DNA of 63,897 bases, filler included, from Perkinsus chesapeaki ATCC PRA-425 (Eukaryota; Protista; Perkinsozoa), in the NCBI GenBank assembly GCA_013115145.1. It is 7 parts of 7 records of this genome, joined end to end, with 100 filler letters (N's around TTAATTAATTAA, not from the genome) between each part and the next. Parts side by side here need not be neighbours in the genome. Positions count along the whole stretch, not along the records: positions 1 to 12,994 come from JAAPAO010000801.1; positions 13,095 to 38,184 come from JAAPAO010000535.1; positions 38,285 to 41,905 come from JAAPAO010001377.1; positions 42,006 to 47,312 come from JAAPAO010001173.1; positions 47,413 to 49,096 come from JAAPAO010001826.1; positions 49,197 to 60,008 come from JAAPAO010000875.1; positions 60,109 to 63,897 come from JAAPAO010001357.1. One strand, written 5' to 3'. How positions within the stretch are numbered: the stretch's first letter is position 1; each line of letters begins with the position of its first letter. The notes beneath the pieces were generated by a model. The model made no database searches. It had not been told where the DNA came from and worked only from the letters and a program-made list of their open reading frames with translations. A program made the position numbers and the translations under genes. Shown here piece after piece: positions 1 through 61,014 of the stretch.

Positions 1-591
1 AGTAAGGGAAGTGGGAAGAGAAGTACTGTGGTTGGAGCCCGGAACTCCGATTCTGAGATAGAATCCCTCCAATATCCTCTAGCGGCAGATGGCCGCCATA
101 CAGTATTAACGTATGACATATGTGACCTCTACGGCCAAGTTTCTGCTCTAACCGAAATCGAACGAATTATAGTTTTTGACGTTAGCGCACGCCCATATGA
201 TCGACCTATGTGAGAGGTGTTGCAGTTATTCTCCAGACGCAAACCTTTCATGAGATTGTGCACTGCAAAGCCATCCGAAGAGTTCCGTGAAGAGAGTGTC
301 ATCCACAGTTGCGTAGTTTATGGTTAAGCCTTACCTCACTTGCGCGCATACATCTCTGTGCGTGCCGCACACAGCGTGCGTACAGACTCTGTACTACAGG
401 GTGGTTCGTTTGGGATGCTTACAGCTAAAACCCGAAACCCTCCGCCGTAGATGGTACTCACTGTGTGGTAGAATCATTATTCAATCATATGTTAGAAGTC
501 GGCAGGGTAAAGATCCGGAAGGTTAGCGGCAATTGTGACAGCTACCCCAGTCCTGTCGGGCATGCTGAAGCCGGCCGTGGTGCGATTGTTG

Positions 592-2102
592 TTACGGCCC
601 ATCCATCTCCTGAGTCAGTAGTCCCGACATAAGAGAGCGGTATAGCAGCAAGCCAAATTGGCTTAGCCAATTACCACCAGTGCCCAAAAGTTTTGGGCCA
701 AAACCTACTCGCAGCTGCAGGAGTGTCTGAATAGTGCTCTGGACCAGCACGTAGTTGCCTGTATCGATGCGAGTGGACACGTTGAAGAAGCAAATGGTGC
801 CGTTCTCTGTATAAACATCTCGGTTTAAGTTTGAAACGCACAGTTTCGGCACGCAGTTTCCCTCTACCTCGTTGTAGACTAGGTGCCCCAAACCTATTCT
901 GCCGCTAATTTGTGTGTAGTGCGTGTGATCTCGTAACCACAAAAACGAATACATCTTGTAGCCCTGACTGATTTGTTGAAGTTGACTTGGAAACCATAGG
1001 AGTGCAGGAAGTCGGAAAGTTTGTCTAAGTAGATGTTGGCGATTTCCTCGGTCTCAGCACCAATGAAAAGATCATCCTGATAGTGTCGAACATGGCTTCC
1101 TTCCGGCTGCTGAGAACTGAATTCTTCCAGCATGAATTGTACAGCTCTCGTGAAAAATAATGGGCTCCAGGACCATCCCTTGGCCAATCTGCAATATCTC
1201 CATAAGTGTAGTTTGCTTGTTCCATCAGCGGCGAACTCATAGCTTCTCAAACAAAAGAGAGGACGTATACCTTCTGGCAACCCGATTGAGCTCAACGCAT
1301 CTTTGAGGTCCAACTTGGCATAGAATACGGATGTCTTCTTCGGCCAGGTCTGTAAGATTTCCTGTGGTGTAGCTTGATATTGATGGTATGTGTCTTGGTT
1401 AGTCCTCCTTTGCGGCGTTTTGACGTATATCTGTCATAGTATAATAACGCCCGTAAGGGAGTCAGCAGATTAGAGAAAATCAAACTGCCTTGAGCCAACC
1501 CTAGAAGTAGGAGTCATATTTCTACGGTTTGACGCAGCATTGTCGGGGTCCAGTGGATGAGATTCTCATCAGTGATGAGTCATCATTAGAAGGCGTCCCA
1601 GTGGGGCGCCACAGGCAACTGTGAAAGAAGAGCGTTTCTTGTAGAAATAACCCTCGTACCGTCTCTACTCAATTGCCCGTTCCCGCCCGGCGTGATCCGC
1701 CGCCCCGGTCCGGGTATTGTAGTATCTTTGTCAAGCTTGGCTGGTAAATCAGCAAGTCAGGAATTGATCACCGCTCTCGGAGTCACGACAGGATTCTTCG
1801 TCGCCATTTCCGGGGTGATGATACAGCGAGTGACACTGAAGGTATGTCGAATACGTAAGCATGGTGAGATATTCTTCGTACTCTTCATCCCATAATGTAA
1901 CTTGAACCGCGTCGCCTTTGTCGATTATTCCGACATTGTGTTCTCTTTTGCGTAGCAGGTATGAATTATACCGTATGATCCTGTAAGATTGTTCGCTTTT
2001 GAGCCTCAGAGACTCTGGAGATCTAGAGTCTAGATCAAAACTCGTCTTCAATGGGGGACTGGGCCATAAATAGTGCCCCATAATGTTCACATTCGTGCTC
2101 AT
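592..2102 (-). mobile_element. Degenerate LTR-retrotransposon pol remnant (RT plus downstream region), frameshifted
   Basis: ORF 894-1313 has the RT motifs LDLKDALSSI, HYQDDLF, GFQVNFNKS and FCGYEI. Flanking ORFs are broken by frameshifts and stops. Confidence 0.75.
650..671. repeat. 7-8-7 inverted-triplication scar, 8-mer AAGCCAAT
   Basis: aagccaa+attggctt+agccaat, perfect. Confidence 0.9.
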
Positions 2103-2131
2103 TCGCCGCGTTGATTACCATTATACTGGGA

Positions 2132-2153
2132 CTTGCAACTTGCAAGTTGCAAG
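2132..2153. repeat. 7-8-7 scar, 8-mer CTTGCAAG
   Basis: cttgcaa+cttgcaag+ttgcaag, perfect. Confidence 0.85.
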
Positions 2154-2642
2154 CGCCTGGGATGAAGAGGACGATTACCGTCGGACCCGACGGCCCGGGA
2201 TCGCACAAGAGCACGCGAGCTCATATCACCTCATGAGATGATAATATCATCTCATATGAAGGTCTAGGCGTAGGGCTTGGCTATCATCCATCAACACCCC
2301 TGCACTTGTTGTGCAACTGCGGCAGTTCAACTGCCGTGTGTGCTTCGAAAGAATGACTGTTAGCTATATACGATAATGGACGAGCGGGAGTCTTGCCTTA
2401 GAGTGTGAATCTCAGATTGGATAGAGAACATTCAAGACTGGCAAAGGCATTGGAACACTCTAACTGAAGTCACTGAGTTAATGGCTATCAATTCATAGGA
2501 AGTTGCGAACATCGCCGCTTCGACTTTCACATGCTTCCGGTGGCTTTCCGGAGATCAAGAAGCAAATGATGGATGGCATAGAGTGATGCCTCCTTCTATG
2601 ATTAACTGACATCAATGGCATGATAGATATGAGTTTGAGAAA

Positions 2643-4177
2643 CCTTACTAAGGTGCTTCAACTGCGCCTCTTTGGCTCTATTCTTGTCCTGCATTATTCT
2701 GGCTTTATCTCTATCCATGTCTCGCTGCATTTTTAGCTCGTCTTCCATCACACGTTTTTCAGCTAACTCCATCACTCCACGTTCACCATTCGTTCACCTC
2801 ACCTCGCTCCTCCACTCGTTCATAATGTCCTGTATGCCTCCTTTGGCCGTCCCCTCTGTGATGATAATGTCCCCTATGGCGGTAACGCCTGCTGATGCTC
2901 GATGGTATCCGTGGCAATCATGAAAGGGCTCACCTCGGGAACATCGTTGTATGAGGCGACGCATTGTCGGAATGGACAGTCGATACTAAAGAGGGATTAC
3001 ATGGCAAATAGCAGACCTTGTCCGATGTTACAGGAAGTCGTGGTGTGATGGAGGTGAGGATTGTCCGTAAGGTGAAATAACATAATAGCTTAACGGGGAG
3101 TCACTGCAGTTGTTTGATTGGCAATACTAAACCCTAGTGAGGCAGAAGAGGTTATGGTAGGCATGGTAGCGACGATGGTGGCAAGCTCTTCGGGAGTTTA
3201 AGAAGATCTGCTGCAGTTGTAAAGCCTCATAGCTGAACCCTGAGCATCAGTTATCTCGACTGATTCGCCCGTGCCTGGCTACTCGCCTTTATGGAAGAAG
3301 AACTCAAGACCTGGCATGAATCCTGGTGATGGTTTCGGACGGTCGTATAGAGCCAAAGGTGCCAGCGGGCTGACGAAGGAGCTCGCTTCGTGCTCGTCGT
3401 AGCAACACTTAGGAAATGATGTTGCCGTGTTGGCTTGTTGATGATGGGGTGATGAAGGCCTAAACGGGTCACTTCGCTCAGTGTACAACCTAGCTTACAT
3501 GAACTCAGTCGGGATGACGGTGTAATGATGGAGGCACATTAGGTTACTAAATCACCACTGATAGATTAATTTACAACTCATCACTAACTTAATAATCACC
3601 AAAATGCTGTGACATGTATAATGCATAGCAGCTTGCAGACATTACACCTAGAGGAAGGCCAATGACCTTTCCAACCTTCCCATCACCACTGGCTTTAAAA
3701 AGTGAGATGCTGTAAGACCCATCAATGCATCGATACTGAAACCTGACTTGAGCATTAATGCAACCGAAATTAATAATGCTGCTAACCATGATGCTTGCTC
3801 TTGCCAGTAGTGTGCTTATGGTGATGGCCTTTATGATGCTTGTGCTTGTGGTGGTGGTGGTGATGGTGATCGGATGTATGACCTTTATGATGGTCATGAG
3901 TGTGGTCATGAGTGTGATCATGAGTATGAGCATGATGTCCATGTGAAGTACTGCTGCTGCTGGTGCCGTTGCTGAATGTTGACCTAATGCTTCCGCTTCA
4001 ATGGTCAATAACACTATTTTATTAATTACGCGATCAAATTATCTGCATTTGGCATCATTCCAGTAGCGCCTAGAAATAACGGTAACCAGCGTGGACATAG
4101 ATCACCTTACCCAGGTCACCATCAGCCGATGGAAGAGTACCAAATGAAGTTGAGGAATCCAGATGGATGATCGGCAT
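2643..4177 (-). CDS. Multi-exon gene of unknown function with a His-rich exon and a downstream coiled-coil exon; boundaries uncertain
   Basis: Phase-consistent GT-AG introns at 4070-4110 and 3984-4029 join MPIIHLDSS..GDLG/ATGMMPNADNLIA/STFSNGT..HGHHAHTHDH. A coiled-coil stretch EKRVMEDELKMQRDMDRDKARIMQDKNRAKEAQLKHL lies near 2650-2765. Linking the distal exons to the same gene is inferred. Confidence 0.45.
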
Positions 4178-4533
4178 TTATGATATGCACTTTTGTTGTC
4201 ACTTTTGTATTGACCAACTCAATCACATTAATGAAGTATTCGAAATGAGCGTCGAACGCTACTATTTGAAACTATTACAACATAAACCTATCAGTAATAG
4301 AGGAAGTGAAAAATCACCAACTCGATAGCACTAATGGTATGCTTTCACACCCACCACCAACAAAGATGAGTTCGACCTAACTTTTACGTGTCTAACACTG
4401 ATGATGGCGTAGTCGGAGCACTCTATGATGGGTAGTGTGAAGAACGGTGGATTGAATCGTGTAGATAGCAGCCTTATCACCGATGAAAGAAGCATTAACC
4501 TTTTTTTAACCGCTATCGGTAAAGAGGGACCAT

Positions 4534-6042
4534 TTAATGGTACTTGGCAAGGAAGTTCTTCTGGAACTCAGCAAGCTTACCAATCATCTCCTTCATCATA
4601 TCATCAGGGGGAAGGATGGTAATTCTGAAATGGTTGGTTCCCTCAACCTCCTTGAAACCGTTACCAGGGACACAGACGATACCAGTCTGCTCGACAAGAT
4701 CGAGGCAGTACATAACATCAGCACTGGCGAAACCGCGGGCCTCAGCAGCTTCAGTGGCCTTCTCAGGAAGGTCGATCTTGACGAAGGCGTACATGGCACC
4801 CTGTACACGCTGGCAGCTCATACCCTCGATGTTGTTGAACTCCTTGGTGATTGCCTCAGCCCTTCTGTGAAGACCATCATAGATGTACTGACGCTCCTTC
4901 TTGAAGAGAGGATAACTAGGACCATCCTCAGGAGGGGGAGTGCACATGAGACCAACGAAGATCTGACCCAAAGTGTTAGAGGAAAGGCAAGAGGCAGCAA
5001 CCTTGTTGAACTGAGCAAGAGTGGGCTCATCAAAGCCAACAAGCTCCATATAACCACCACGCTGACCACATTCACCAAGAAGGCCCTTAGAGGTAGAATG
5101 GAAGCTGACAAGCTGGACAACATCGAACTTGGCGGGGTCCTCCTTCTGAAGATCACGAAGGATCTTCTTGAAAGAGAAGAACTTCCTCTCAGTGTAAATG
5201 TTCTCCTGATAGACCTCATCAGCCATAATGAGAAGGTTGTGCTCCCGGGCGAAGGTGATGATACCGCGGATATCCTCCTGACTCAACACGGAACCGCACG
5301 GGTTACCGGGGTTGATGACGGCAATGGCCTTGAGGTTGATACCCTAAAAAGGAACATTATTTCTAAACTCAGAACAACAAAAGTAAATGCTTACCTCACT
5401 GATGGCCCTGTCATAGGATCGCTTGAGCTCCTCCTGAGAGACGCTCCACCCGTTCTCCTCCTTGAGGTAATAATAATCGTAACGGCCACCGTTCATGGTA
5501 AGAGCGCATGAGTAAAGGGGATACTGGGGGCAAGGCAAAAGGATACCATCGACACCAGGCTTGGCAATAACCATATCGATAACACGCTTGATGCCCTCAG
5601 AAGCACCAGTGGTGAGGAAGAGCTTCTCGGTATCACAAGGATAACCATCACGTCGTTGAATATAATCAGCAACTTGCTTGCGAATGCAAGGGAGACCAGG
5701 GCTCATAGTGTAACCGCCAGTTCCAACACCATTACTGCCGTCCAAATAGTATTTGGCAGCAGCCTTAACATCCTCGGGGAACTCGGAGGACTCCATAAGA
5801 GCGGGATAAGTGCATATTGCGGCAACTTGACGGTAATAAGTAATAGGCTTCTGGCCAACAACTTGAGGGTTGCCGATGTTGCAAGGAATAGTATGCTTGA
5901 AGGGGACAGTCTTATCACCCTCAGCAATCCTCTTGTTCATCTCGGCAGCCTTGGCAACGACAGCACCGCGAACGGCGTACTCTGCCTTTCGGACGTTTTG
6001 GTTCATCGTCTCGACGTTGAGTCCTTGATAGCTGCTAGACAT
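4534..6042 (-). CDS. GPT: Alanine aminotransferase (PLP-dependent, class I/II); join 5395-6042 and 4534-5343
   Basis: Motifs NIGNPQ, PQYPLYS, INPGNPCG, ADEVYQEN and SFHSTSKGLLGECGQRGGY. A 51-nt GT-AG intron (5344-5394) restores the frame AISE/GINLK. Confidence 0.95.
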
Positions 6043-6757
6043 GGTGATTAATCCTTTCCAATAAAACTAACGACAAATTATCATCAGACTGCAAAGGGAG
6101 AGGGACGACCATAACATTTCGGAATCGAAGACGCTAAAGATGCTTGCTGACACAAAGCGAGCTTGAATTGTCTAACAGATAAACAGCGGAGCGGTGTAGC
6201 TTAGGAGCATGATATGTCCCGTTACGATTTAACGACTAATGTTTAATCTTGTATGTATCTTGCACTCTTCTAGCTCGGATACTCTTAAATATTCAAATCC
6301 CATTACCTTATCCCTTGGCCCTCGAACCGATCGTGACGAGAGACCGACTATCTCTCTCTTGCGCGGCCGTTGCACGCACGACCAACTAAACAGCGCGCGC
6401 CCCGAAACTTACGACCAATTCCGAAAACGAATCATGCATACAAGATTTCTAAGAAGGCTTTGTTATCAATTAATGTGAATATTAGACCAGTGCAATAAAG
6501 GATGTTATAGCTGGTAATTAGTAACCATCGAAACAGGTTATTCGATGATGATGACGACGACAGTGGAGCATTATTGAAACACTCAAACCGGCAAGTGGTG
6601 GGTAAATCATATTTTCTAAAGAAACCACCGCTTTTCTGAAGAGGTATCTCGCTGCGGTTTCCTTCTCCTTAAAGAAACGTCCTCGGTCGTTGTGACTTCG
6701 GGTTTTCGGTTAACATGTGCGCAGTTAGTAACAATCATTTCAGCGTTAAATTTATTT

Positions 6758-7336
6758 ATGAGCAAGTCATTATTTCCATCAAATCTAATCGAAGTAGCCG
6801 GTGGTAAGGATGCCTTCGAACAGGTGGCCAAAAGATTCTACGAGCTCTCATTCGAGGACCCTATCCTAGGATGCCTTTATGAGGATAAATCCGAACCTCA
6901 TCACTTGAGATTCGCCGCTTGGTTTTATTCGGCTTGTGGTATCGATGATGTCTATAAGCGTATGGGCGGCACTCGTCATGTCAATAAAATGCATAAGAAG
7001 TCTCAACATTGTCCATTACGTGGAGAAGCCCCTAAAGAAGCCGGTTATGTTGGTGATGGTTTTACCGTTCAACAGAGGAATAGATGGCTAAAGCTTCAAT
7101 TGCAGGCTTGTGAGGAGTTCAAACTCCCTAAAGATGAGTTTATTAAACCTTATATTCGAGGACTTAGTAAATTCATGGTCGTCTATGGACCATTCACAGA
7201 AGCTAGATCAGAGGAATCTGAGAGTGTGGCAAGCAGCAAATGTCCCGTAAAACACGATGAGACAAACACCGCTGCAGTAGTTCAGACAATGAAAGAAGCT
7301 ATCATCGATCGAGGTGTGCCAAAAGCATCGATTTAA
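6758..7336 (+). CDS. Truncated (2/2) hemoglobin-like protein, group II-like
   Basis: GGKDAFEQVAKRFY..DPIL, HHLRFAAWF, KMH (candidate proximal His) and QRNRWLKLQLQAC resemble the GlbO-type helix pattern. ATG at 6758. Confidence 0.7.
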   Translation: MSKSLFPSNLIEVAGGKDAFEQVAKRFYELSFEDPILGCLYEDKSEPHHLRFAAWFYSACGIDDVYKRMGGTRHVNKMHKKSQHCPLRGEAPKEAGYVGDGFTVQQRNRWLKLQLQACEEFKLPKDEFIKPYIRGLSKFMVVYGPFTEARSEESESVASSKCPVKHDETNTAAVVQTMKEAIIDRGVPKASI

Positions 7337-7478
7337 GTCTATCTATTCTCTAATACGATTTGTACTGTAGTTCCTATATAAAAGAGTGTTTCTGATATTT
7401 TATATTAAGTTTCATATATTGCTAATACCATTGTGTTTGTCAAGTCACCATCGTAGTGTATGCCGCAGCTTTTAAGGT

Positions 7479-10321
7479 ATGGCGTGGTGCCTACTATCAG
7501 TTTTATCGACCCGTGGCCTCTGCTGCTTACTTGCTGTCGTCTATGTAATAGACATTTTAGCAACAACCCATCTAAATGCGGCTCACACCTTTTCGACGCA
7601 ATCACTCAAATGGTTGGGTCTCGCGCGGGTTATTCTGACACCTCTAGCTTTCCTTACTGCATACATTGTCTGGAACAAGAGAGTAGGGCAACTTAGAAGG
7701 CTTGAAGACGATCAGCTGCTACTACCTCTAACAGGCGGTGGTGACCTCACCATCGAACGTGAGCGCCTGAGAACCATCGCGGGTGAGAAGAAAAAAACAA
7801 GTCGAATCATCAACGTCTTCATCGCCGCAGCATTCGTGATTCAAACAGTGTCGGCGGTCTCAACGGGCATAACAGCAGTGCAGTTGAAGAGTTTCAACTC
7901 CTCTGGTGATGTTGTCATGCTATGCTCGCTTATATTCTGGGCCAACCTTGAGTACTTCCTGGCAAAGGATATTTTTAATAGTAAATGCTCGGACCCGGGT
8001 GAGCTACTCGTTGGTGTTCACCTTCATCCGGTATTCTTCATGACCGATATGAAATGTCATTCCTGTGATGTATGCATGGAGAGGATTGAAGATGATGGCT
8101 ATCGTTGCAAAACATGTGATTTCGATGTCTGTCTGAGATGCCATGCTCGTCATCGTCGTGAGAGTGTCCCACTAACAACAGACGGCAGTGCCACTACTGG
8201 TGGGCTAAGTCTTTGTCAGTTCTTCTGTCGATCGATACAGTTGGCTTTAAACTTCTGGCCAACATTACTCGCTGCTATGATATGTATGATGGCTTGCCAG
8301 GCTACGGTACTGGCGGCTCCTAACTTGCAAGGTCGAATATTTGATTCCATTATTAAATGGGATCAACGTTTATTTGCCAACACTATTTACATATACCTCT
8401 GCGTCAACTTACTCCAAGGTCTACTTGCAGCTGTTCAGAGCCTTACTTTGAACTTGGTGGCTCGGCGCATCCGTGCTGCTGTTTGCTGTAAATTGTACAT
8501 ATCGTTGATTGGACAAGATGTAGCCTTCTTTGATGCAACTCATACAGGCAATCTCACATCGAGACTCAACAATGACGCTGCTGCGATGACTAATCCTTGC
8601 CGAACTATATTAAATAACTTAGTGGCCAATGTGGTGTTGCTGATCGGTGGTGGTATTATGTGTTTTATAACAAATTGGCGACTGGGCATCCTCGCTGCAA
8701 CATCGATGATTCCTATATCGTACGCGTATCGTCTATATGCAAAATGGTCACGTCAAGTTTATTCCACTATTTATCAAGCAATGGGTGACGCTAATTCGGT
8801 GGCAACAGAAAGTTTTGGTAACATAAGAACGGTGAGAGCATTCGGTGCGGAAGATACTGAGATTGCTAACTATAATGAAGCAGTCGAAGTTAGTCTTAAA
8901 GCTGGAGTCCGAAGTGCTGTGGTCGGCGCTGGTGTCTATGGTTATGCTAAATACATCGATTTGGGCACGACAGTGCTTATCTTATGGTATGGTGGTAGCG
9001 CAATATTTAATAACAATAATGTCACACTGGGAACTTTGGTGGCATTTCAACTATATTGGAATATGATGAACTCGGCATTCAATGCTTTAAGTGATGTTAT
9101 TAATGATTTGATCAGAGCAGCTAGTGCTGCTGAAAGAGTATTCGATTTGATGGACAGACAACCTAAGATAGATCCAACAGCAGGCGAGGATATCGATACC
9201 GTTTTGGGCGATATTGACATCCACAACGTCAGTTTCTCCTATGCTTCTCGTCCTGACAAAATGGTGCTTAAATCAGTTAGCTTGTCGATGAAAAGCTCTA
9301 CAGTGACAGCATTGGTTGGTAAATCTGGTGGTGGTAAGAGCACGTTGGTTCATTTATTATTAAGATTTTATGATCCAACAGAAGGAAGTATTCTCATGGA
9401 TGGTGTCGACTACAAAACTTACAAACCATCTAGTCTGAGGTGAACAGCATCATAACCCTGCTCTCCGTTAACTAGACCTATCAGGTCTAAAATCGGTCTA
9501 GTTGCCCAAGATACGCAGTTGTTCTCTTCATCAGTGTATAAGAATCTTACCTATGGACTGGATAGGGAATGTAATGATGATAAAAGGAAAGTGTGGCGAT
9601 GATGTTCCTCCTCCTCCTCAGGCACTATGGATGAAGTGGTATCAGCAGCACGGATGGCGAACGCTCATGAATTTATTACAGAGATGGATGAAGGATATGA
9701 AACACGTGTTGGTGAGAGAGGAATTCGTCTTTCGGGTGGACAAAAGCAACGTATCGCCATAGCGAGGTGATCTCCTACTGTGAAGATGTGGTCATCTTTC
9801 ACCTCAGATGTTTCCTCCGCAAACCTCGAATACTTTTACTTGATGAGGCCACAAGCGCACTTGATACCGAGAATGAATCCTTAGTTCAAGCCGCGCTAGA
9901 TGGGTAAGGTTGCTGTATAAAAATGTTCCAGCTTGATGGAATAACGAGGCTCTAGTATCCCATGTTACATTATGATCTCCAACGTTGTATGTGCTGCCGA
10001 TTACCACCGATCCCTTATTATTTGTTTTCAATTTCAGACTAATGGCTACTGGCAACTGTACAGTCATCCTGGTGGCCCATCGCCTCAGTACCGTCAAAAA
10101 TGCCAATACAATTGCTGTCATCAGCGAGGGAAGTATCGTAGAGAAAGGGAGACATGAAGAGCTGCTCCATTTGAATGGTATGCTTGAAAGAAAGGGCTTT
10201 ATTAAGTCATTCATCAGGGGTATATGCTAAATTAGTCGCACGGCAACTCAGCCACGACGCGAATAGATTGCCTGTAGACGGGACAGTTGACGGACTTTTT
10301 GATGGAATGAAAGCCGCCTGA
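7479..10321 (+). CDS. ABC transporter B-family half transporter with extra N-terminal TM segments and a Cys/His zinc-finger insert; multi-exon 3' part
   Basis: TMD motifs (FFD..TG.LTSRL, E....IRTVRAF), Walker [10 protein letters not shown], signature LSGGQKQR and Walker [12 protein letters not shown] across short GT-AG introns. Ends ..GMKAA* at 10321. Confidence 0.93.
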
Positions 10322-10822
10322 GTTTTTCATCTAATATGCCTTTATATAAACTTACGTCGGGCTTGAGTTACCAAGTATCCAACGAACTTGCTCGTACCCG
10401 TGAAATGGATGCTAGCAGGAGTCTACGTGCAAGAGTTGTGGCGTGTGTCGCAGGGAGAGCGGTCTGCATCATCCCTGGTGGCTTGCTAGGGATCACTGGT
10501 GATGAGATACCCGATACGAGTGACTTCATCCAATGGAGTATCAGAGGACAGGTTACAACAACTAACTATGCTACACCCTCGTCGCAGTGTAGGTATGCTA
10601 TCTGCTGCTGCGTAGTGTATGCAGCAGCAGATAGCAGATAGCAGGCAATTAGGAGTTACCACACTACCACAATTGGTAGTTATATCGGACAATTGTATGG
10701 ACTCGCCACTGGCGGTGACATATCCAAGGTGACATGGTGTTCATGCGTGCAACGAGACTGTCTCTTGAACTGCAGAAGAAGTTTTGCAATCAAAGCACAC
10801 GGTTTGCTGGAGTCAACATATA

Positions 10823-11035
10823 ATGTACTCTCGTTGGTTGGCTATACTACTTATTATGCTATGGTTGCAGGAGGCTGCTGGTGGGGATAAAGAAGCACAT
10901 GCCAAGTGCCAGAAGATCTCTAATGAAATGTGTGGTGGTTCCAAGGCCCTCTGTGATTGCACATTCGGTCATTGCTATAATAGTAATATAGTCAAATCGT
11001 GTATGGAAAAGTTTCAGTGCAGCTGCTCACGTTGA
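10823..11035 (+). CDS. Small secreted cysteine-rich peptide (signal peptide plus 8 Cys), 70 aa
   Basis: MYSRWLAILLIMLWLQEAAGG followed by DKEAHAKCQKISNEMCGGSKALCDCTFGHCYNSNIVKSCMEKFQCSCSR*. Confidence 0.55.
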   Translation: MYSRWLAILLIMLWLQEAAGGDKEAHAKCQKISNEMCGGSKALCDCTFGHCYNSNIVKSCMEKFQCSCSR

Positions 11036-47253: not shown

Positions 47254-47312
47254 TGAGAAAGCTAGTTGTTCTCTAGGAGACTGCTGCACGCGACACGGAG
47301 CGCCGTGACGCT

Positions 47313-49657: not shown

Positions 49658-49679
49658 CTTATCAATGATAAGTTATCAT
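49658..49679. repeat. 7-8-7 scar, 8-mer CTTATCAT
   Basis: cttatca+atgataag+ttatcat, perfect. Confidence 0.92.
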
Positions 49680-50080: not shown

Positions 50081-50102
50081 ACTCCAGGCTGGAGTCTCCA
50101 GC
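50081..50102. repeat. 7-8-7 scar, 8-mer ACTCCAGC
   Basis: actccag+gctggagt+ctccagc, perfect. Confidence 0.92.
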
Positions 50103-50560
50103 ATCTACGGCTCGGATAAGAAATGACCAACATGTTTCAGCATCCAGACGATAGATACGCACCACTTGTGAGAATGAACGTACCCATGCCGACACAGGTC
50201 TTGAATCATCTTCTCCAGCATATTGCACAGCATCAGGTATAGGCAACTGAGCAGTAGCGGTAATTCTCTTAGTATCAGCGCCATGACTATCAAGAGCAAC
50301 TGCACCACGTAGATAGTCAGAAATATATGAGCGACCTTCCGAGTGACCATCAGATATAGGTGCCGCTACTTGTTGTGGTATAGCCGCCGGTGGCGTAGAT
50401 GCCAAACGAATCTGGTCAACCAATTCTCGTCGAGTTAAGCGATCAGCCAAGCCTAATGACCTTTCAGCTTGTTCCAAGTCTTCAGTCCGAAGATATCGTA
50501 TACTGGCCTCTGGAACACCTAATAAAACTGATAGACGTTGTAGTGCACCTCGATCTCCAA

Positions 50561-50582
50561 CTTGTTGCCAACAAGTTGTTGG
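50561..50582. repeat. 7-8-7 scar, 8-mer CTTGTTGG
   Basis: cttgttg+ccaacaag+ttgttgg, perfect. Confidence 0.92.
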
Positions 50583-51558
50583 CCATCACTGCCAACATTA
50601 CCAAGATTTACCGAAGAAGGACTCGTAATACCATTGATTGGAGTCGTCGGAACCGGAGTATTCACTGCATCGGGTACCATTATAGTGAATTACGTTCATT
50701 ACGTATTACATTCCCATTACGTTCATAAAATTGCATTACAAGGCACTAGCGTCACGCTATGCACAACACAGAAAATGGGGCAATTATTGTGGGATGAGAT
50801 ATCATATCTGGGACAATCTCTACACTTTGTCTTCTATGTCAAGATGAAGAGGACTCTCCAGTTCATCGTGCTTTGAACTGCTCTAAGAAGAACTATCCGT
50901 CGTGGTTAGACAGGCTTGGGACACTTGGACAATTTAGTGTCAACAGCTATAAACTGCACTGCCTATACACTCTACTTAAATGAACCTTTATTACACGGTG
51001 GTTCCTTAATTAGCTAATGGCTCCCCTTATGTCTGACTAAACCCATAACTGGGTGTCGGACACTAAACTACACACACACCATCACTGTTATTGGATCACG
51101 CTGACGGCGTCCTGATCGAGAAGGACGGAGTGGTGCTCAAGGCGCCACCGATAGTTCGCCCAGAGGAGTCTATTATTTGTGAGTTCCAGCAAACTCTTTC
51201 TGTCCTTTCATTTGTACGAGGGTTTTCGTTGTGTCACCGCGCGATAGTGACCCTTTGGTTGTCACAGTGTATATGCGTGCGTAGGAATGGATTATCCATT
51301 ATATTACTAATTATGCATTCTCAAGTGGAGTCTTATTCGCACGGGAAAATGTTACCTTGAAGAAATGAGCCTGCTGTATTTTCCAGGAAAGTATAGACCA
51401 GTTCGTTGGGCCCTTTTCGCTGTAGTCGCTGCTATGATACCTTGTATTATTTCCTACTCGCTCAAAGGTTCGAAGCCCATCTTATTGGCATGCGCCTAAG
51501 TGGAGCAATAAGGTTTCATAGCCTTGGCAGTTGTTACCTCATTTGAAAGGGCTTCAAC

Positions 51559-52881
51559 ATGGATACTCCCTTCGCCGTCGCTCGATTCTTGAGAAGTCTA
51601 GCTGCTTTGCTTCGCGTTGTTCTATCAATCAGACCTTACTTATGGTATCTCATTCTCCAGCGTTGTCTACTCATCAATGTTGATAGGCTTAGAGTATACA
51701 TTAGAAGTATACTTCACTCCCCTCAGACAGACCACTTCGTAGCCGCCGCCTTGGAAGGTTGTGGCGTGACATATCTGGGCGATGAAGTTGTGACTGGGGG
51801 GTATGTGACATCAGTTAAGAGAGTATATGTTGATCAAAAGAAGAACGTTAAGCTGCCTGATAGTGTTATTATGAAGAGCCTATCGAGCAATTTCTATAGG
51901 CGTTTGGCAACTTGTGGAATCTACCAGCGCGAAGTACGATTTTACAACGAGGTGGCGCGCACTCTACCTATACCGATTCCCAGGGTTCACTCCTGCAAGT
52001 GGGATAATTGGCGATGCTCTGGACTTATTATTCTAGAGGACCTCAAGACTGGCGTGTTGATGAGTGATAAACTGTTAACACATGAAGACCCCAAGGGTTT
52101 AGTTTCGGAAGCAATGCGGGTTGCCGCCCGGATGCATGCGAAGTACTGGGGTGCAACCCCCTCCACTCTGGCAAAGTCTAGTTTGGGTAAATATCCCTGG
52201 CTCAAAGGTTATGACTACATACAAGGCAGAAATAAGGGAATGTACGCATCCGCTAAATGCCTCCTGTCGTTCCTATGGGATAAAGTGAAGAGAGCTATTT
52301 TGGAGGGAAGTGTGGGTGAGCGCGAATACGGAGTCAAATTGAGAGGAGAGCTTGTAGAGTTCGTTGACAAGGCAATTGAGGCTTCTACCTGGGATGCCTA
52401 TCAAAACTACTTGAAAACCTCCAAGCATCCTCTCACTTTTATCCATGGTGACTATTACACTAACAACCAATTATGGGATGAGGAGACGAAGAGGCTCTAC
52501 ACGGTCGATTGGTCAGAAGTATCGGTTGGTGAAGGCCCTGCAGATATAGCACTGTACTTTTTCGGATACCCTCAAGTAGCAAAATGTCGCAAATGGGAAG
52601 AAGAGCTAATCCGTATATATTGGAAGGAGCTCGGTGCACAAGGAGTCGATCTGTCTTCGTACCCTCTCTCTATGTGCCGTGAAGCGTATGTTCGGGGTGG
52701 CATTGATAAAGGGATTCAGCGACTGATTATGGCAGCGGTTCCCGCACTTTACTGTCCTGCGCTAATTCCTGTGCCATTAATCCAAGGTGTTGTAGATCAA
52801 GTGGATGCGTTTGTTACCGAACATAAGATGGAATACCGTAGCCCCTACCTACTAGCGACTGCTTACTTCGATACGTGGTAA
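51559..52881 (+). CDS. EcKL/APH-choline-kinase-like phosphotransferase, copy A (intronless)
   Basis: VIMK, YQREVRFY, IILEDL, IHGDYYTNN, VDWS..G.G.ADIA; hydrophobic N-terminus. Confidence 0.8.
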   Translation: MDTPFAVARFLRSLAALLRVVLSIRPYLWYLILQRCLLINVDRLRVYIRSILHSPQTDHFVAAALEGCGVTYLGDEVVTGGYVTSVKRVYVDQKKNVKLPDSVIMKSLSSNFYRRLATCGIYQREVRFYNEVARTLPIPIPRVHSCKWDNWRCSGLIILEDLKTGVLMSDKLLTHEDPKGLVSEAMRVAARMHAKYWGATPSTLAKSSLGKYPWLKGYDYIQGRNKGMYASAKCLLSFLWDKVKRAILEGSVGEREYGVKLRGELVEFVDKAIEASTWDAYQNYLKTSKHPLTFIHGDYYTNNQLWDEETKRLYTVDWSEVSVGEGPADIALYFFGYPQVAKCRKWEEELIRIYWKELGAQGVDLSSYPLSMCREAYVRGGIDKGIQRLIMAAVPALYCPALIPVPLIQGVVDQVDAFVTEHKMEYRSPYLLATAYFDTW

Positions 52882-54167
52882 GCTTAAGCCGGTCGGTTGT
52901 CAAGCTAGTAGTCAAGTTTCTTTTATAGAGCAAGTGTCTTAGCTCCAGCTTGATCATCAATCTTTCATTAGCTGTATCCAATGTATAATACTCTCCTACC
53001 AATAAACGAGCTGTTGAGCTAGCCGTAATACATCAATTCCGAAATAATGCCCGATTTCGTCTCGAAATTTTCGGGACGCGGAGGGAATATTGCGTATTAT
53101 CCAAACAACCCTCAGGAGACTGCAACGCGCTGACACATCCCAACTGGATGTATGTCACTCAGTTCGCCCCTATCAGCCGCAGTGAAAGTCAGAGGAGGCG
53201 CTATGATCATTCAGATTAATTGATGCTCAATTTGCTCAGCACATCCCTAAATCTATTAGCCTAACAACATATGTGCCGATATCGTCATATATCGAGGACT
53301 CAATAGAATGAGATCGGTAAGAACGTCACAGATGCCCCATACAAATCAGTTGCGCTGTCCACCAAGTCATCTACGCTGGTAAATTGTAGAATGCTTTGTT
53401 TGTTCGCAGTTAGTGGCGAGATGCCTCTTAGAGACTACCCTCTTTTTCAGGGCACTACTAACGTGTTACTACTCTCACTTAACGCTCTTGCGAAAGGTGA
53501 CGGGGACATGGGGCCGATGAAAGCTCAACTCTGTCACGCAGACAATAATGTGTCCGCGCGGAGGCACATGCAAGAACTGTTGCATTTCCTTGTCACAGCA
53601 AGGAAGGAGGAAAGTGAACAAGAGGTGTTCTTCGCAACAGCTCTCGCGAGGGTCTGAACTTAGAACACATATCACTCGCATTATATCTCTTCCAACTTGC
53701 AGTCAGACTAATCTAGTAATACTTCTCGAGGAGCACTATTATCAGCTTTTGCTACGTTCGTACATGACATACTGGCTACCTTACATGTTTTCTGTATAGT
53801 TAAACCTGCAAGGTTCGACGCGGGTAAATTCGTTCTTCGGGGGACGCTTCGCTCCGCCACGTTCTGAGATTTGACCATTGTGTAAGCTACGTAGCTTCTG
53901 TTTCATAATGATATAGTAGAGCAGAAAACTCATGTCGTTCGCCCTTGTGTGGAGTTTTCTCCTCCCTGTCCATTTCCCATTTTTTTCGTTTTTCTAGGGT
54001 ACGGGGAGTGCGCTCACCTTAGTCCTCTGCATTTGAGTTACTCATTTGCAGAGACCTAACGTGAGTGCTTCGATGGTTGGGCTAAGCTTTGCCTTGTAGG
54101 CAGCTTTGCCCTTACCATTTCTTCCCAGTCCCCCGTACCTACGAATTTATTGTCAAACAGACCTGCT

Positions 54168-54636
54168 ATGTTCCTTAACGATATACTCTTTCATCTATCT
54201 CAAATACTGGTTATTAGCCATTATTGATAAACTCAGAGTGTACCTTGAAAAGTTGTTCTTCAACCTGCAGCCCGACAGCCTCGCAGCTACTGCGCTGAAA
54301 GATTGTGGGATGAAGTCGTTACTGGCGGACTGGCATGCGCGGTTAGGTGGATACATCTGGAAAACAACTCCAGATAGTGTCATTATAAAGAGCGTCTCGA
54401 CCAGTTTGCATATGCGTTCACACTCGGGGTGCACTTCTACAATGAGATATCACACACCTTGCCTATACCGATTCCCCTCGTCTACTTCTCGGAATGGAAA
54501 GACTGGCGCTGTTACCAACTAATTGTAATGGGAGGTATCCGAATGGGTATTCCAGCTACATACAGACTGTTAACGCCGGACGGCTCCAAAACTGTTGTTC
54601 AAGAACCGATGCTAGTTGCTGCCAGGATCACGCACA
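54168..54636 (+). pseudogene. Truncated, frameshifted EcKL copy B
   Basis: Near-identical to the 5' part of 58219-59478 but with deletions. Similarity ends at ..VAARI and unrelated sequence follows. Confidence 0.8.
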
Positions 54637-56186
54637 AGGACTCGGTTGTGGACGTCACCTTCTTCGAAGGTCCTTACTCTGTGGAGGGCTGGTTCGTTTT
54701 CGATGACTTGGGGTTGAGGTACGGCCATCAACGCCATCAAAGGTATGGCGCCACCTACAGTCCGGACTCCGGAATCCTACCGAAGGATGCAGCTCTAGGA
54801 AGCCCGGATTCCGAAGCCGTGTCGTACAACTTCTCTCGTAGCAGCAGCTCTACCCAATCTAATTAGCGTGTGTGTAAGTCTTTAGTCCAGCGGCAGAAAT
54901 TACCTAGTTGAACTATCCTAGTTGACTACGTGCAACTGCCGAGAGAGTTCAATGCCGATACTGTTAGTGTCACTGTATGGTTCAACCAGAAGAATGCAAC
55001 TAGTGATCAGATATCCTGCTCCTCCCAGCAGGGTTTCCTTACGCAACCGAGGGCCTGTGTACAACTAGCAAAACACGACGGCTCGCGAAGTGTGACGCCA
55101 CAAGCTTCATCTCTCAGTCTCCCAGACTGGCGTACACTTACTGGCTAAATATCTCATCAAATCTCACGAGATGAAAATCTACAGATGATTTTAATTTTGC
55201 CGATATGTAGTTCGACATGCTAATTTTCGCATACTCTAGGACAACAGGCTAGCATATTGTTGGCAGCCATTAGGTGCCACAGGGCCTTAAGGAACGTTGT
55301 GCAGCATTCTTGAACAATGCCGCGAGAAACGGCCTTGGGAATGCTTCTCCGAAGAGTGTATACCATGCGCATGGCGCAGTCTTGATGGTGCAACACAGAC
55401 TGCGCCCAGCGCGAGGTCTCCGGAGAGCCTGGGGCAGCTGGACCACACTTACGCTGCTGTAGATTCAGAGTGATTCCGCGAGTGGAATCGTATTCGCACG
55501 GTATAATGTTGCTTTGGAGAGATGGACCTGCTCTATTTTCCAAGAGAGTATGACCGTTCTGCAGCGAGCCAGATCTTCGGCTGGCACGGTGCGAGTCGAA
55601 GTCCGCACTCCAAACTGAGCTGAAGAAGCAGGCTTGCTCTGCATTTCAATCCTGAACGCGTCCTTGTGACGCGGAAGTTCTGCTTTTTTGCCGATAGCTA
55701 TACTTCTATGGACTGGTATTTCGGTGCTTTCCTTTTCGCCGATCGGCGCTGAGAAGCGACTACCCACCACGTCGGCCCTCCAGAAACACACGGATCAAGG
55801 AACTCGCATGAAATGATTTTCCGCTGGAGTAGTAGTACTATTTTTCGAGGCTTTTCAAGAATTCAGCCGAGTGGGTGTGATTGTCTCGTGCCCGATATTA
55901 TACCCCTTTATAGTAGTAAGCTGACATTTTCCGATAATTATTTCTTCGTCTAAAGACGTTAACTGTGAAGTTCGCACCAGGAAACGGGTGGCTTGATCCA
56001 GCCTTGCCTGCAGCAGCTCCAGTACGGCTCTGTTAGGTCTTTTGTGCTGTACTTGGGGTTACAATACCAAGTTATGTTTTCTACTCGGTTCAAGGCGCAT
56101 GGCGTAATCCCAGGGATGCTTCGGAAGTGGAGCAGTAAGGTTTCAGAGCCTTTGCAGTTGTTACCTCATTTAAGAGAGGCTTTAAC

Positions 56187-57509
56187 ATGGACATTTCCTT
56201 CGCCGTCCCTCGATTCTTGGGAAGTCTAGCTGCTTTGCTTCGCGTTGTTCTATCAATCAGACCATACTTATGGTATCTCATTCTCCAACGTTGTCTACTC
56301 ATCAATGTTGACAGACTTAGAGTATACATTAGAAGTATACTTCACTCCCCTCAGACAGACCACTTCGTAGCCGCCGCCTTGGAAGGTTGTGGCGTGACAT
56401 ATCTGGGCGATGAAGTTGTGACTGGGGGGTATGCGACATCAGTTAAGAGAGTATATGTTGATCAAAAAAAGAACGTTAAGCTGCCTGATAGTGTTATTAT
56501 GAAGAGCCTATTGCTCAATTTCTATAGGCGTTTGGCAACTTGTGGAGCCTACCAGCGCGAAGTACGATTTTACAACGAGGTGGCGCGCACTCTACCTATA
56601 CCGATTCCCAGGGTCTACTTCTGCAAGTGGGATAATTGGCGATGCTCTGGACTTATTATTCTAGAGGACCTCAAGACTGGCGTGCTGGTGAGTGATAAGC
56701 TGATAACACATGAAGACCCCAAGGGTTTAGTTTCGGAAGCAATGCGGGTTGCCGCCCGGATGCATGCAAAGTACTGGGGTGCAACCCCCTCCACTCTGGC
56801 AAAGTCTAGTTTGGGTAAATATCCCTGGCTTAAAGGTTATGACTACATACAAGGCAGAAATAAGGGAATGTATGCATCCGCTAAATCCCTCATGTCTTTC
56901 CTATGGGATAAAGTAAAGATGGCTTTTTCGGAGGGAAGTGTGAGTGAGCGCGAATACGGAGTCAAATTGAGAGGAGAGCTTGTAGAGTTCGTTGACAAGG
57001 CAATTGAGGCTTCTACCTGGGATGCTTATCAAAACTACCTGAAAACCTCCAAGCATCCTCTCACTTTGATCCATGGTGACTATTACACTAACAACCAATT
57101 ATGGGATGAGGAGACGAAGAGGCTCTACACGGTTGATTGGTCTCAGGTATCGGTTGGTGAAGGCCCTGCAGATATAGCAGAGTACTTTTTCGGATACCCT
57201 CAAGTAGCAAAATGTCGCAAATGGGAAGAAGAGTTAATACGTATCTATTGGAAGGAGCTCGGTGCACAAGGAGTCGATCTGTCTTCGTACCCTCTCTCTA
57301 TGTGCCGTGAAGCGTATGTTCGGGGTGGCATTGATAAAGGGATTCAGCGACTGATTATAGCAGCGGTTGCCGCACTTCACTCTCCTGCGCTAATCCCCGT
57401 GCCATTAATCCAAGGTGTTGTAGATCAAGTGGATGCGTTTGTTACCGAACATAAGATGGAATACTGTAGCCCCTACTTACTAACAACTGCTTACTTCGAT
57501 ACGTGGTAA
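56187..57509 (+). CDS. EcKL-like phosphotransferase, copy A'
   Basis: Same length as copy A (440 aa); I count 27 amino-acid differences. Confidence 0.82.
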   Translation: MDISFAVPRFLGSLAALLRVVLSIRPYLWYLILQRCLLINVDRLRVYIRSILHSPQTDHFVAAALEGCGVTYLGDEVVTGGYATSVKRVYVDQKKNVKLPDSVIMKSLLLNFYRRLATCGAYQREVRFYNEVARTLPIPIPRVYFCKWDNWRCSGLIILEDLKTGVLVSDKLITHEDPKGLVSEAMRVAARMHAKYWGATPSTLAKSSLGKYPWLKGYDYIQGRNKGMYASAKSLMSFLWDKVKMAFSEGSVSEREYGVKLRGELVEFVDKAIEASTWDAYQNYLKTSKHPLTLIHGDYYTNNQLWDEETKRLYTVDWSQVSVGEGPADIAEYFFGYPQVAKCRKWEEELIRIYWKELGAQGVDLSSYPLSMCREAYVRGGIDKGIQRLIIAAVAALHSPALIPVPLIQGVVDQVDAFVTEHKMEYCSPYLLTTAYFDTW

Positions 57510-57582
57510 GCTTAAGCCGATCGGTTCTCAAGCTAGTAGTCAAGTTTCATTTATAGAGCAAGTGTCTTCAAACTGCTGCCCT

Positions 57583-57702
57583 CCTACCAACTTACCTTAC
57601 TACTAACTCTCTCCTACCAACTCAACCCATCCTAGACTATCGCCTACCAACTCAACCCATCCTAGACTATCGCCTACCAACTCAACCCATCCTAGACTAT
57701 CG
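57583..57702. repeat. 30-bp minisatellite (3 copies plus 1 degenerate)
   Basis: cctaccaactcaacccatcctagactatcg, inside an insertion absent from the paralogous flank after 52881. Confidence 0.9.
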
Positions 57703-58218
57703 ATTTGGCATCTACCTATATGATGTATTTAGTTATGTCAATGATAGTGCTGATTTCACACTCTCACTAAATCCGCAAAAGATATAGCTCCAGCTTGATA
57801 AACCTGTCAATCTGAGCGTTGATCAATCTTTTATTAGCTGTATCCAATGTATAATACTCTCATACCCCATGTTACTTATGTTACTACTCTCATTTAACGC
57901 TCTTGCGGATGGTGACGCGGCCATGGAGCCGATGAGAGCTCAATTCTGTCACGCAGACAATAATGTGTCCCTGTGGAGGCACATGCAAGAACTGTTGCAT
58001 TCCCTTGTCACAGCAAGGAAGGAGGAAAGTGAACAAGAGGTGTTCTTCGCAACAGCTCTCGCGAGGGTCTGAACTTAGAACACATGTTAACTCGCATTAG
58101 ATCTTTTCCAGCTTGCAGTCAGACTAATGCTTCTCGAGGAGCACTTTTATCAGCTTTTGCTACGTTCGTACATGACATACTGGCTACCTTCTGCGTTGTC
58201 TCCTCAAACAGACCTGCT

Positions 58219-59478
58219 ATGTTCCTTAACATATATTCTTTCATCTATCTCAAGTACTGGTTATTAGCCATTATTGATAAACTCAGAGTGTACCTTGGAA
58301 AGTTGTTCTTCAACCTGCAGTCCGACAGCCTCGCAGCTACTGTGCTGAAAGATTGTGGGATGACGTTTATGAGCGACGAAGTTGTTACTGGCGGGTTCGC
58401 AGGCTCGGTGAGGAGGATATATCTGAGAAACAGGGAGGATGAAGACTCTCCTGGTAGTATCATCATAAAGAGCGTTTCGACCACCTTGCATATGCGTTCA
58501 CACTCGGCCATGTGTGGAGTCTGTCAACGCGAAGTGCGTTTCTACAATGAGATATCACGCACCTTGCCTATACCGGTTCCCGAGGTCTACTTTTCGGAAT
58601 GGAAAGACTGGCGTTGTTACCAATTAATTGTGATGGAAGATATCCGAATGGGTATTCCAGCTCTAGATAGATTGTTAACGCCGGCTGGAGCCAAGACTAT
58701 AGTTCAAGAAGTAATGTTAGTTGCTGCCAGGATCCATGCAAAGTACTGGGGTGCAACTCCCTCTACTTTGGCAAAGTCTAGTTTGGGTAAGTATTCCTGG
58801 CTAAAAGGATATGACTACATTCAAGGCAGAAGTAGAGGAATGTACGAATACTGTAAAAATAACATTTCAGCTTGTTGGGATGAAGTAAAGGCTGCTATTT
58901 CGGAGGGAAGGCTCGGAGACCGCCAATACGAAATCAAATGGAGTCCAGAGCTGGTGAAGTTTATTGATAAGGCAATTGAAGATTCTACTTGGGATGCTTA
59001 TCAGAAATATCTGAAAACTCATAAACATCCTTTGACTTTGGTTCATGGCGATTATCATGCTGGTAATCAGTTGTGGGTCGAGAAGACGAAGAAACTTTAC
59101 ACGGTCGACTGGTCAGCAGTATCAGTAGGTGAAGGTCCTGCCGATCTCGCGGGATACTTCTTTTTCCCACATACCGCTAGGTATCGCCAATGGGAAAGCG
59201 AACTCATCAGCATCTATTGGAATGAGCTTCGAAGACAAGGAGTAAATCACTCTTCGTATCCTCTCTCCATGTGTCGGGAAGCTTATGTTCGAGGTGGCAT
59301 TGACCGAGGCATTCAAGTACTCATTTTGTTAGCTGCTTCTGCAATTCATTGTCCTGGGCTTTTCCCTGTATCATTTATTCAAGGTTTTGTTGACCAAGTA
59401 GATTCCTTCGTTGCTGAGCACAAGGAAGAGTACAGCAACCCCTACTTATTTACCAGGGCCTATATTAACCCGTGGTGA
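58219..59478 (+). CDS. EcKL-like phosphotransferase, copy B'
   Basis: CQREVRFY, IVMEDI, VHGDYHAGN, VDWS..ADLA. ATG at 58219 inferred from alignment with copy B. Confidence 0.82.
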   Translation: MFLNIYSFIYLKYWLLAIIDKLRVYLGKLFFNLQSDSLAATVLKDCGMTFMSDEVVTGGFAGSVRRIYLRNREDEDSPGSIIIKSVSTTLHMRSHSAMCGVCQREVRFYNEISRTLPIPVPEVYFSEWKDWRCYQLIVMEDIRMGIPALDRLLTPAGAKTIVQEVMLVAARIHAKYWGATPSTLAKSSLGKYSWLKGYDYIQGRSRGMYEYCKNNISACWDEVKAAISEGRLGDRQYEIKWSPELVKFIDKAIEDSTWDAYQKYLKTHKHPLTLVHGDYHAGNQLWVEKTKKLYTVDWSAVSVGEGPADLAGYFFFPHTARYRQWESELISIYWNELRRQGVNHSSYPLSMCREAYVRGGIDRGIQVLILLAASAIHCPGLFPVSFIQGFVDQVDSFVAEHKEEYSNPYLFTRAYINPW

Positions 59479-59955
59479 CTTGGGCATCGATGAACGCTTC
59501 TGAGGCTACTACTCGTGAAACGATTTTGCAAAGGTCTAGTTTCCCGAAGTCCTGCTAACCTGCTACCCCGCGTTGTGTCGAGGGTGATACTAAATATATA
59601 AATTCTTATATATAGCGATGATACTAAATGTCGGTGAAATGATACACACCATTGTCTCATGCTTATCTCTCTGCTGTCACTCCGTTCCATTCTTAGAATG
59701 TCATTCTAGACTATTGTTGACTCGGAATCCACTTCGTTGATGTGTTACGTTTTATGAATGGTACCCGTGATGTAACACTCAAGTCTCCTTTGGAACCATT
59801 TACATCAGCCTTTCAAAAACCCGACGTGTAACAGAATTTGAAAACTGGTGTCGGGCTTCTTCGTTGCAGCAACGTTCATATGACATATATGGCTTATACG
59901 GAGACTATGGCGAGAATGCTATGAGCTGTGTTAATTCTGTCTATCGTTAAATACT

Positions 59956-59977
59956 ACTCCACGGTGGAGTCTCCACC
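59956..59977. repeat. 7-8-7 scar, 8-mer ACTCCACC
   Basis: actccac+ggtggagt+ctccacc, perfect. Confidence 0.9.
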
Positions 59978-60008
59978 CTATATTAGTCTGTATCTGTGCC
60001 CATAGTTG

Positions 60009-60108
60009 NNNNNNNNNNNNNNNNNNNNNNNNNNNNNNNNNNNNNNNNNNNNTTAATTAATTAANNNNNNNNNNNNNNNNNNNNNNNNNNNNNNNNNNNN
60101 NNNNNNNN
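60009..60108. other. Artificial contig spacer
   Basis: 44 N + TTAATTAATTAA + 44 N. Confidence 0.97.
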
Positions 60109-60523
60109 TTGGTCTCTTCATCATACCAAGTACTTCTATCGGATCTGCCCCTCTCCCTAGTCCCTCTATCCTCTCCAGTTCTATCATCAACCCTGACTTC
60201 ATCCCCTCCGCACTCCCCTTACTCCCCTCGTCCTCCAACAGTACCTCCATTCTCCTTCTCTTGACAGCACCTTCATTGCCCTCCCCTTCGGAGCCTCTCT
60301 TTCCCCGTGGAGACACTAGCCTTCTCCTCCTCACCACAGGCGATCGCACCAGCCCATCAACTCTCTTCCTCTTCACCCCAACAACCATAGTCGGTTCCAA
60401 TCTCCTGGCCATCTTGGGAGACCTTTCTCGAGCCTCCCCTCCAGAGCTTCGTCGTCTCTTCAATCCAACTCGGGGGTCTCTACCAGTGTAAGACACCCTA
60501 GCAATCCCCTCTGGTGGTGACAT
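60109..60523 (-). CDS. N-terminus of a basic, charged ORF, possibly retroelement ORF1/gag; cut by the contig edge
   Basis: Open from the ATG at 60523 to the spacer, K/R/E-rich, no diagnostic motif. Confidence 0.3.
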
Positions 60524-60992
60524 GGGAACGATAGAGCAGCTGCCACAAGCTGATCCATCCTACTACCTTCCACACGTTTAATTGACCACTTTAACAACTA
60601 CCCAAGGCCAGTAGGAAACAATCACCGCCGACGCCGCCGCTGCCATAAGCTGACATAAGGACAAAACTAAACTATGAAATGTATGCCCCGAAGCCATGCG
60701 CAAGGCGGCAGTCGAGGAGACAGATATCGTATACACTGTAGTTGACCGAGTCCAATGATCGTTAGGGGGAGGAGGAGGAGGAGGAGCCTGCAGCTGCTGC
60801 TGGTAATGGATAGGGACATCAGAGGCCTGTGTCCCATTTGTCTTCAGATACCACCACTGCAACCTAATAAAACCACCAACTTCTAAGTATACATTGACCA
60901 GCACCCGCCAGAGAATCGTAGAGTCGAAATATAGGTGTAGGGGATGACAAGGACGCCTATTACCGAGGATGCACTGAGGGTATGTAACATCG

Positions 60993-61014
60993 ATAGCAAT
61001 TTGCTATTAGCAAA
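60993..61014. repeat. 7-8-7 scar, 8-mer ATAGCAAA
   Basis: atagcaa+tttgctat+tagcaaa, perfect. Confidence 0.9.

Follow-up and report, generated by a model that had tools for sequence, protein, structure and literature searches.

Transposons of the hAT superfamily duplicate an 8-bp target on insertion, and the nick with which Hermes excises is offset by one base into the flank. Hairpins on the flanking DNA are described for Hermes, hobo and TcBuster (PMC6941560; PMC3499496), and the footprints reported for Ac/Ds in plants, Saccharomyces cerevisiae and Candida albicans contain palindromic additions that derive from the flank and whose central base complements the one that adjoined the element end, with Ds cleavage placed at the 5' flanking nucleotide and hairpin opening followed by end joining, mostly via microhomology (PMC5873905; PMC1978519). 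For Ds in budding yeast, arms of up to 20 bases and a microhomology share of 88-89% are given, and long palindromic arms together with microhomology are also reported from Arabidopsis (PMC5873905). A further parallel is offered by the P nucleotides of V(D)J coding joints, palindromic additions that likewise stem from the off-centre opening of a flank hairpin (PMC6941560). Here, we describe a 22-base motif that recurs in DNA of the alveolate Perkinsus chesapeaki ATCC PRA-425 (GCA_013115145.1), in a window, the whole stretch of DNA analysed, of 63,897 nucleotides. For an 8-mer abcdefgh, the motif reads abcdefg, the reverse complement of abcdefgh and then bcdefgh, and is referred to below as a 7-8-7 scar. 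The scars are most probably footprints of hAT excision, formed by the opening of flank hairpins several bases away from their tips and the rejoining of the ends via the target-site duplication.

The chemistry is that of the known flank-hairpin model, and the new part would be that a single long footprint dominates and is so dense. Unlike the scars in Perkinsus, those left by Ac/Ds are short or vary in form (128 Candida clones yielded 28 types, the longest arm being 3 bases), and those reported for TcBuster in human cells consist of deletions reaching 50 bases and of insertions no longer than a few (PMC3499496). The Ac/Ds data, moreover, come from assays at one donor site, whereas the Perkinsus scars constitute a fixed genomic record with a density of ~0.46 per kb in the window. 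V(D)J joining differs in that its target is not duplicated; it therefore lacks a built-in register, and with it any convergence on one long product. A literature search found neither a description of the scar from Perkinsus nor one of a 7-8-7 footprint that dominates, although the primary footprint papers may list this product among many; it also found no paper joining Perkinsus with Ku70, and hairpin opening in alveolates seems to be unstudied.

The window consists of seven pieces joined by 100-base spacers (44 N, TTAATTAATTAA, 44 N) at 12995, 38185, 41906, 47313, 49097 and 60009, and all scar counts refer to these 64 kb. Scanning for the 22-base motif with a unit length k of 8 revealed 15 perfect sites and 14 with one mismatch, 29 in all with at most one, as well as five two-mismatch sites outside an AT-rich block at 21500-33800; three of the one-mismatch sites (359, 1958 and 54798) were scored by their mismatches relative to the base shared by most of the three copies. 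The peak at k = 8 anticipated in an earlier note on this DNA is evident: perfect matches numbered five at k = 5, which is near chance (0-4 in shuffles), none at 6, one at 7, 15 at 8 and none from 9 to 13. Sixteen ways of trimming the copies were compared at k = 8: the form lacking one base from each outer copy accounted for the 15 sites, one other geometry for two and the remainder for none. No perfect site at k = 8 arose in ten local shuffles, and in 30 further ones the means were 0 perfect, 0.03 one-mismatch and 0.23 two-mismatch sites, against 15, 14 and 5 observed outside the AT-rich block. Three-mismatch matches were also in excess (23 versus 4.4 by chance), but were left uncounted because some of them are shifted shadows of true sites. 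The tip-defining positions hold six of the 14 mismatches (p 0.03), which is recorded here but not relied upon. The number of mismatches per scar ranges from none to two or more, and the scars must therefore have formed over a long time as well as recently. The 7-8-7 pattern, an addition of 14 bases, is real and biological.

Sixteen of the 29 scars are covered by contigs assembled from public sequencing runs of two studies, and all 16 are reproduced free of gaps. The perfect scars among them lie at 650-671 (inside a decayed reverse-transcriptase region), 683-704, 2132-2153 (where the 8-mer is self-complementary), 12171-12192, 13733-13754, 13915-13936 and 18342-18363, and those with one mismatch at 359-380 and 1958-1979 (both by majority count), 380-401, 1565-1586 (overlapping another single-base-centred palindrome at 1563), 2314-2335, 13324-13345, 13428-13449, 13476-13497 and 13887-13908. 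The motif scan placed further perfect scars at 34143-34164 (the first part of which is also found in run-contig loose ends), 38425-38446, 41818-41839, 49658-49679, 50081-50102, 50561-50582, 59956-59977 and 60993-61014, and one-mismatch scars at 34539-34560, 41675-41696, 41851-41872 and 59687-59708, with 54798-54819 contributed by the majority scan. Every one of the 13 perfect and seven one-mismatch sites listed in the earlier note is included, and the perfect sites fall on five of the seven pieces, as it had said of its sites; 683 and 12171 are additional among the perfect sites, and 13476, 13887, 34539, 41675, 359, 1958 and 54798 among those with one mismatch. The run contigs match the window at 72-2770, 72-10954, 13169-14157 and 17747-18401 with no differing letter, and at 11896-12990 with 2-4 differing letters, in all cases without gaps. 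An assembly or library artefact is thus extremely unlikely, even granting that contigs rather than raw reads were compared and that the window DNA may derive from these very runs, given the agreement between runs of two studies at 16 of 16 covered sites, the later substitutions within scars (14 one-mismatch and five two-mismatch sites), the avoidance of host reading frames and the presence in a paralogue of its own scar at a separate site.

Sequence comparison polarises five scars as exact +14 insertions, as the earlier note had proposed from the motif, and the 8-mer would have been single-copy at the outset according to two DNA pairs and three protein-polarised 14-base offsets. The first pair is provided by the long terminal repeats (LTRs) of a full-length Ty3/gypsy-type retrotransposon at 14099-18485, which is flanked by a 5-bp duplication. 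Its two LTRs, at 14099-14241 and 18329-18485 (both on the minus strand), differ by two substitutions and by the 14 bases of scar 18342, in place of which the unscarred LTR holds one copy of the 8-mer, at 14112-14119. Sequence resembling a tRNA primer site adjoins the LTR at 18329. The second pair was not selected by us but arose from the listing of run-contig indels: between 13095 and 18700 three indel rows were found, two of one base and one a 14-base insertion behind 17920, carried by a paralogous contig ~89% identical to the window. The insertion fits the 7-8-7 prediction for the single 8-mer at 17917-17924 at 12 of 14 letters, and both misfits are two copies of one base substituted in the paralogue. 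The remaining three scars lie in a retrotransposon gag-protease region at 49197-50680 (minus strand), where alignment with a P. chesapeaki homologue (81-92% identical) revealed three frame changes, each of 14 bases and each at a scar (49658, 50081 and 50561), and two further indels of 3 and 12 bases that remain in frame; the scars are thus the only frameshifts of the region. A second homologue confirmed two of the three 14-base offsets, the one at 50561 being seen against the closer homologue.

The geometry of the scars points to excision by a hAT element. In each scar two palindromes overlap, each with a single unpaired base; these bases are the complements of h and of a, and in all 15 perfect sites the two tips carry bases complementary to the terminal bases of the 8-mer, as in the Ds footprints. 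Outside the AT-rich block, 98 single-base-centred palindromes with arms of at least six bases were counted (8-23 in ten shuffles), 48 within 7-8-7 sites and 50 outside them, with arms of up to 14, while palindromes centred on no base or on two bases were at chance level (15 and 14). The palindromes of V(D)J P nucleotides are even-centred, not single-base-centred. T at position 2 or A at position 7 is found at 30 of the 58 ends of the 8-mers (p 4e-5 given local composition) and at 17 of the 30 ends of perfect sites (p 5e-4), which resembles the target motif nTnnnnAn of hobo, an element with an 8-bp duplication (PMC11226609). A central TA is present in none of the 29 8-mers. In further agreement with hAT excision, the scars avoid host reading frames and are clustered.

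A hAT-family transposase gene is itself represented in the window by its decayed C-terminal half, interrupted by stops and frameshifts, at 40360-41656 (plus strand), with 56-64% identity to a 767-residue P. olseni protein and a weak match to Dimer_Tnp_hAT (E 0.003, below the curated cut-off); scar 41675 lies just 3' of it. Relatives and look-alikes of the P. olseni protein carry DUF4371 and Dimer_Tnp_hAT. A profile search with a core fragment of the remnant retrieved hAT transposase relatives from three Perkinsus species (P. chesapeaki, P. olseni and P. marinus being named for the gag and hAT relatives together), which, unlike insect hAT transposases, group with DUF4371/ZMYM1-ZNF862-type hAT proteins. 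A homologue search with the C-terminal fragment gave no match, no locus encoding the P. olseni protein was found in metagenome or viral contigs, and a search of solved-structure sequences with that protein returned only two chance matches (E 0.07-0.08).

The footprint could be produced as follows. Insertion of the element would duplicate the 8-mer abcdefgh, and excision would nick one base into each flank and seal hairpins whose tips are the complements of h and of a. The left flank strand would then read abcdefg, the complement of h and the complements of g to a, and the right flank strand the complements back to b, followed by a, b and so on to h. If a host nuclease opened the two hairpins at distances of m and n bases from their tips, in each case on the 3' side, one overhang would read the 8-mer in reverse complement and the other the same 8-mer forwards, and by derivation the two pair in a single register whenever m + n exceeds 8; gap filling, trimming of flaps where an opening lies beyond 8 and ligation would yield 7 + 8 + 7. 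Owing to this single register, variable hairpin openings would funnel into one product. The opening of each hairpin at least 8 nucleotides from the tip, as envisaged in the earlier note, would be sufficient but is not required, because any overhangs totalling more than 8 bases anneal in the same register. Long openings are nonetheless suggested to occur by a +21 variant at 40870-40898, in which both 8-mer halves and both tips are intact with the tips 14 apart, and which coincides with seven extra residues relative to the P. olseni hAT protein, as well as by other palindromes with arms of 8-14. Pre-existing fold-back is absent at 39 of the 58 junction ends, flank complementarity at the junctions is at permutation level and extra flank microhomology is not enriched.

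Among the 26 candidates that keep both 8-mer halves and both tips, 17 are of the +14 type, one is the +21 variant, three are classical +8 footprints (0.3 by chance, at most two being genuine) and five others are near chance. The short and heterogeneous spectrum that is classical for Ac/Ds is not what is seen here, with 17 long products against three of the +8 type. One of these three, at 56692, was rejected as ordinary coding sequence, since a paralogous kinase gene has equal length there. The single dominant product claimed in the earlier note thus stands for candidates that keep both duplication halves, but is accompanied by a heterogeneous tail made up of the +21 variant and an excess over chance of ~37 single-base-centred palindromes that do not belong to the 7-8-7 class (for example at 2244, 14090, 17398, 18310, 18929, 19392 and 39318), some of them paired 3, 10 or 14 apart. 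The same hairpins, repaired in other ways, probably gave rise to these palindromes.

The suggestion of an unusual hairpin-repair pathway peculiar to this lineage fared less well. P. marinus, the closest species named, is scored as having Ku70, Ku80 and Lig4 in a table of orthology-database scores (Table S1 of PMC6635534), and a special pathway is consequently unproven; loss of non-homologous end joining (Ku70, Ku80 or Lig4) as a possible cause is not what these scores indicate, and long arms with microhomology are also on record for Ds elsewhere.

Several observations weigh against a hAT origin of the scars or limit how far it can be taken. Precise excisions and plain deletions are undetectable in the window, and `dominant' consequently refers to products that can be seen there. 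The T2/A7 bias is of moderate strength, eight of the 29 sites having neither base, and among the 50 other palindromes it does not reach significance (p 0.08-0.18). The hAT remnant has decayed and bears a scar of its own, with no link leading from it to the other scars. The window yielded no element that combines terminal inverted repeats with an 8-bp duplication, a terminal-repeat scan allowing duplications of 4-10 bp having given only low-complexity or chance matches, and no occupied allele was found among the run-contig loose ends listed. As neither element nor occupied allele came to light, we infer the source element from its scars, and 29 scars with no resident element in the window would call for very efficient excision. 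In sum, the hAT origin put forward in the earlier note is favoured by the tip geometry, the T2/A7 bias and the hAT transposase sequences in the window and in the genus.

Since no occupied site connects the scars to hAT, the excised element may instead have come from a different superfamily that duplicates 8 bp (MULE, Merlin, P-like or undescribed) and have followed the same hairpin-and-rejoin route, which we consider quite unlikely. The MULE Muta1 is reported to make flank hairpins, but its excision in yeast is given as more than 90% precise (PMC5499845). Merlin-related frames, with no ends identified, are reported from P. marinus, but the group is described as duplicating 8 or 9 bp, and the paper makes no mention of hairpins (PMC8101967). 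Dada elements are likewise reported from P. marinus, but with 6-7-bp duplications inside small-RNA genes (PMC3706591), whereas the unit here is 8 and tRNA and Rfam scans of the window gave no match. The strict unit of 8, with nothing at 9, and the T2/A7 bias, which fits a hobo-type hAT, argue against this alternative as a whole.

A hit-and-run or domesticated activity, by which a hAT-like transposase inserts and re-excises at once and the scars represent a standing frameshift mutagen in repeat-rich DNA, appears highly unlikely. It would agree with 29 scars against zero resident elements, with three scars as the sole frameshifts of a 1.5-kb gag region, with one scar against two substitutions in a young LTR pair, with the full-length hAT protein on record in P. 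olseni and with the strong clustering of scars, 10 of the 28 inter-scar gaps being of at most 200 bases (p 5e-5). Ac, however, hops locally, and local hopping accounts for the clustering. The absence of scars from host reading frames (0 of 29 in 11.5 kb, p 0.003) needs no explanation beyond selection, no scar lies in young retrotransposon stretches such as 42006-47312, and 64 kb are too few to gauge the number of resident elements. The broader proposal of a hAT-derived cut-and-reseal activity that is mostly hit-and-run and opens hairpins far from the tip, with the +14 addition among the commonest insertion mutations, serving as a frameshifting defence that kills retrotransposon genes and leaving tens of thousands of datable scars, is on the whole unlikely.

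Replication template switching, or a flap-derived small inverted triplication with no transposon involved, is disfavoured and only remotely probable. The product is formally of the forward-inverted-forward layout seen in the small inverted triplications of FEN1-deficient (rad27) cells; those events, however, are reported as variable and ~150 bases in size (median 148/160/148 bases), with 30-base spacers and 6 bases of pre-existing inverted microhomology at the junctions (PMC13334657), while the Perkinsus scars have a fixed length, one-base loops, a target bias and no pre-existing junction homology.

Excision by a hAT element, with rejoining via the duplicated target, would have marked a window composed of repeat-rich pieces, retrotransposons and a few host genes, in which the scars disrupt genes of other mobile elements. 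Stretches at 14099-18485, 34697-38109, 42007-47253, 592-1433 and 47928-48935 comprise Ty3/gypsy-like and Pao-like sequences and fragments of reverse transcriptase and RNase H. The AT-rich block at 21500-33800 (~30% GC) is rich in triplet microsatellites and holds no scar in 12.3 kb (p 0.002); its genes include those for cytochrome c1, a kinase and a fatty-acid desaturase, and a cytochrome c1 exon is 98% identical to a protein named from P. marinus, the next matches reaching at most 77%, which places the DNA in Perkinsus. Three tandem EcKL/APH-like kinase paralogues, 70-95% identical, occupy 51547-59478.

A short repeat at 13095-13167 and 33898-34124 looks like a very high-copy satellite, because its summed contig depth is ~35,900 in run X1 and 3,300 in X2, compared with ~90 for single-copy sequence, and because two related units lie ~190 bases apart at 33.9-34.1 kb; it has no Rfam match. 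The segment 72-2770 is represented by a single contig form in runs X1, X3 and X4, and a second form, ~10-15% divergent, covers 2850-10954 in the same runs and is absent from X2 at the setting used; the divergent forms may be haplotypes or paralogues. Contigs on opposite strands join 10939-11036 with sequence beyond 12990, which implies that an inverted repeat of ~100 bases encloses a multi-copy segment of 2 kb; this may be a terminal-repeat element with its far end outside the piece. The sequences flanking plain N gaps at 31927 and 44574 are duplicated.

Excision footprints are usually too short and too varied to be recognized without the parent allele. Those of Perkinsus, on the other hand, are self-identifying, each spelling out its own target 8-mer, and a genome scan would therefore yield thousands of past insertion sites together with their ages and target preference. 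At the density of the window, an 87-Mb genome would hold ~40,000 scars, which is likely to be an overestimate because the pieces of the window are repeat-rich. As the only frameshifts of one gag region, and absent from host frames, the scars are a real mutagen, and they provide a natural read-out of the position of hairpin opening in an alveolate. For a shellfish pathogen they may also be used as strain markers of known direction, and past transposition and hairpin repair can be read from them.

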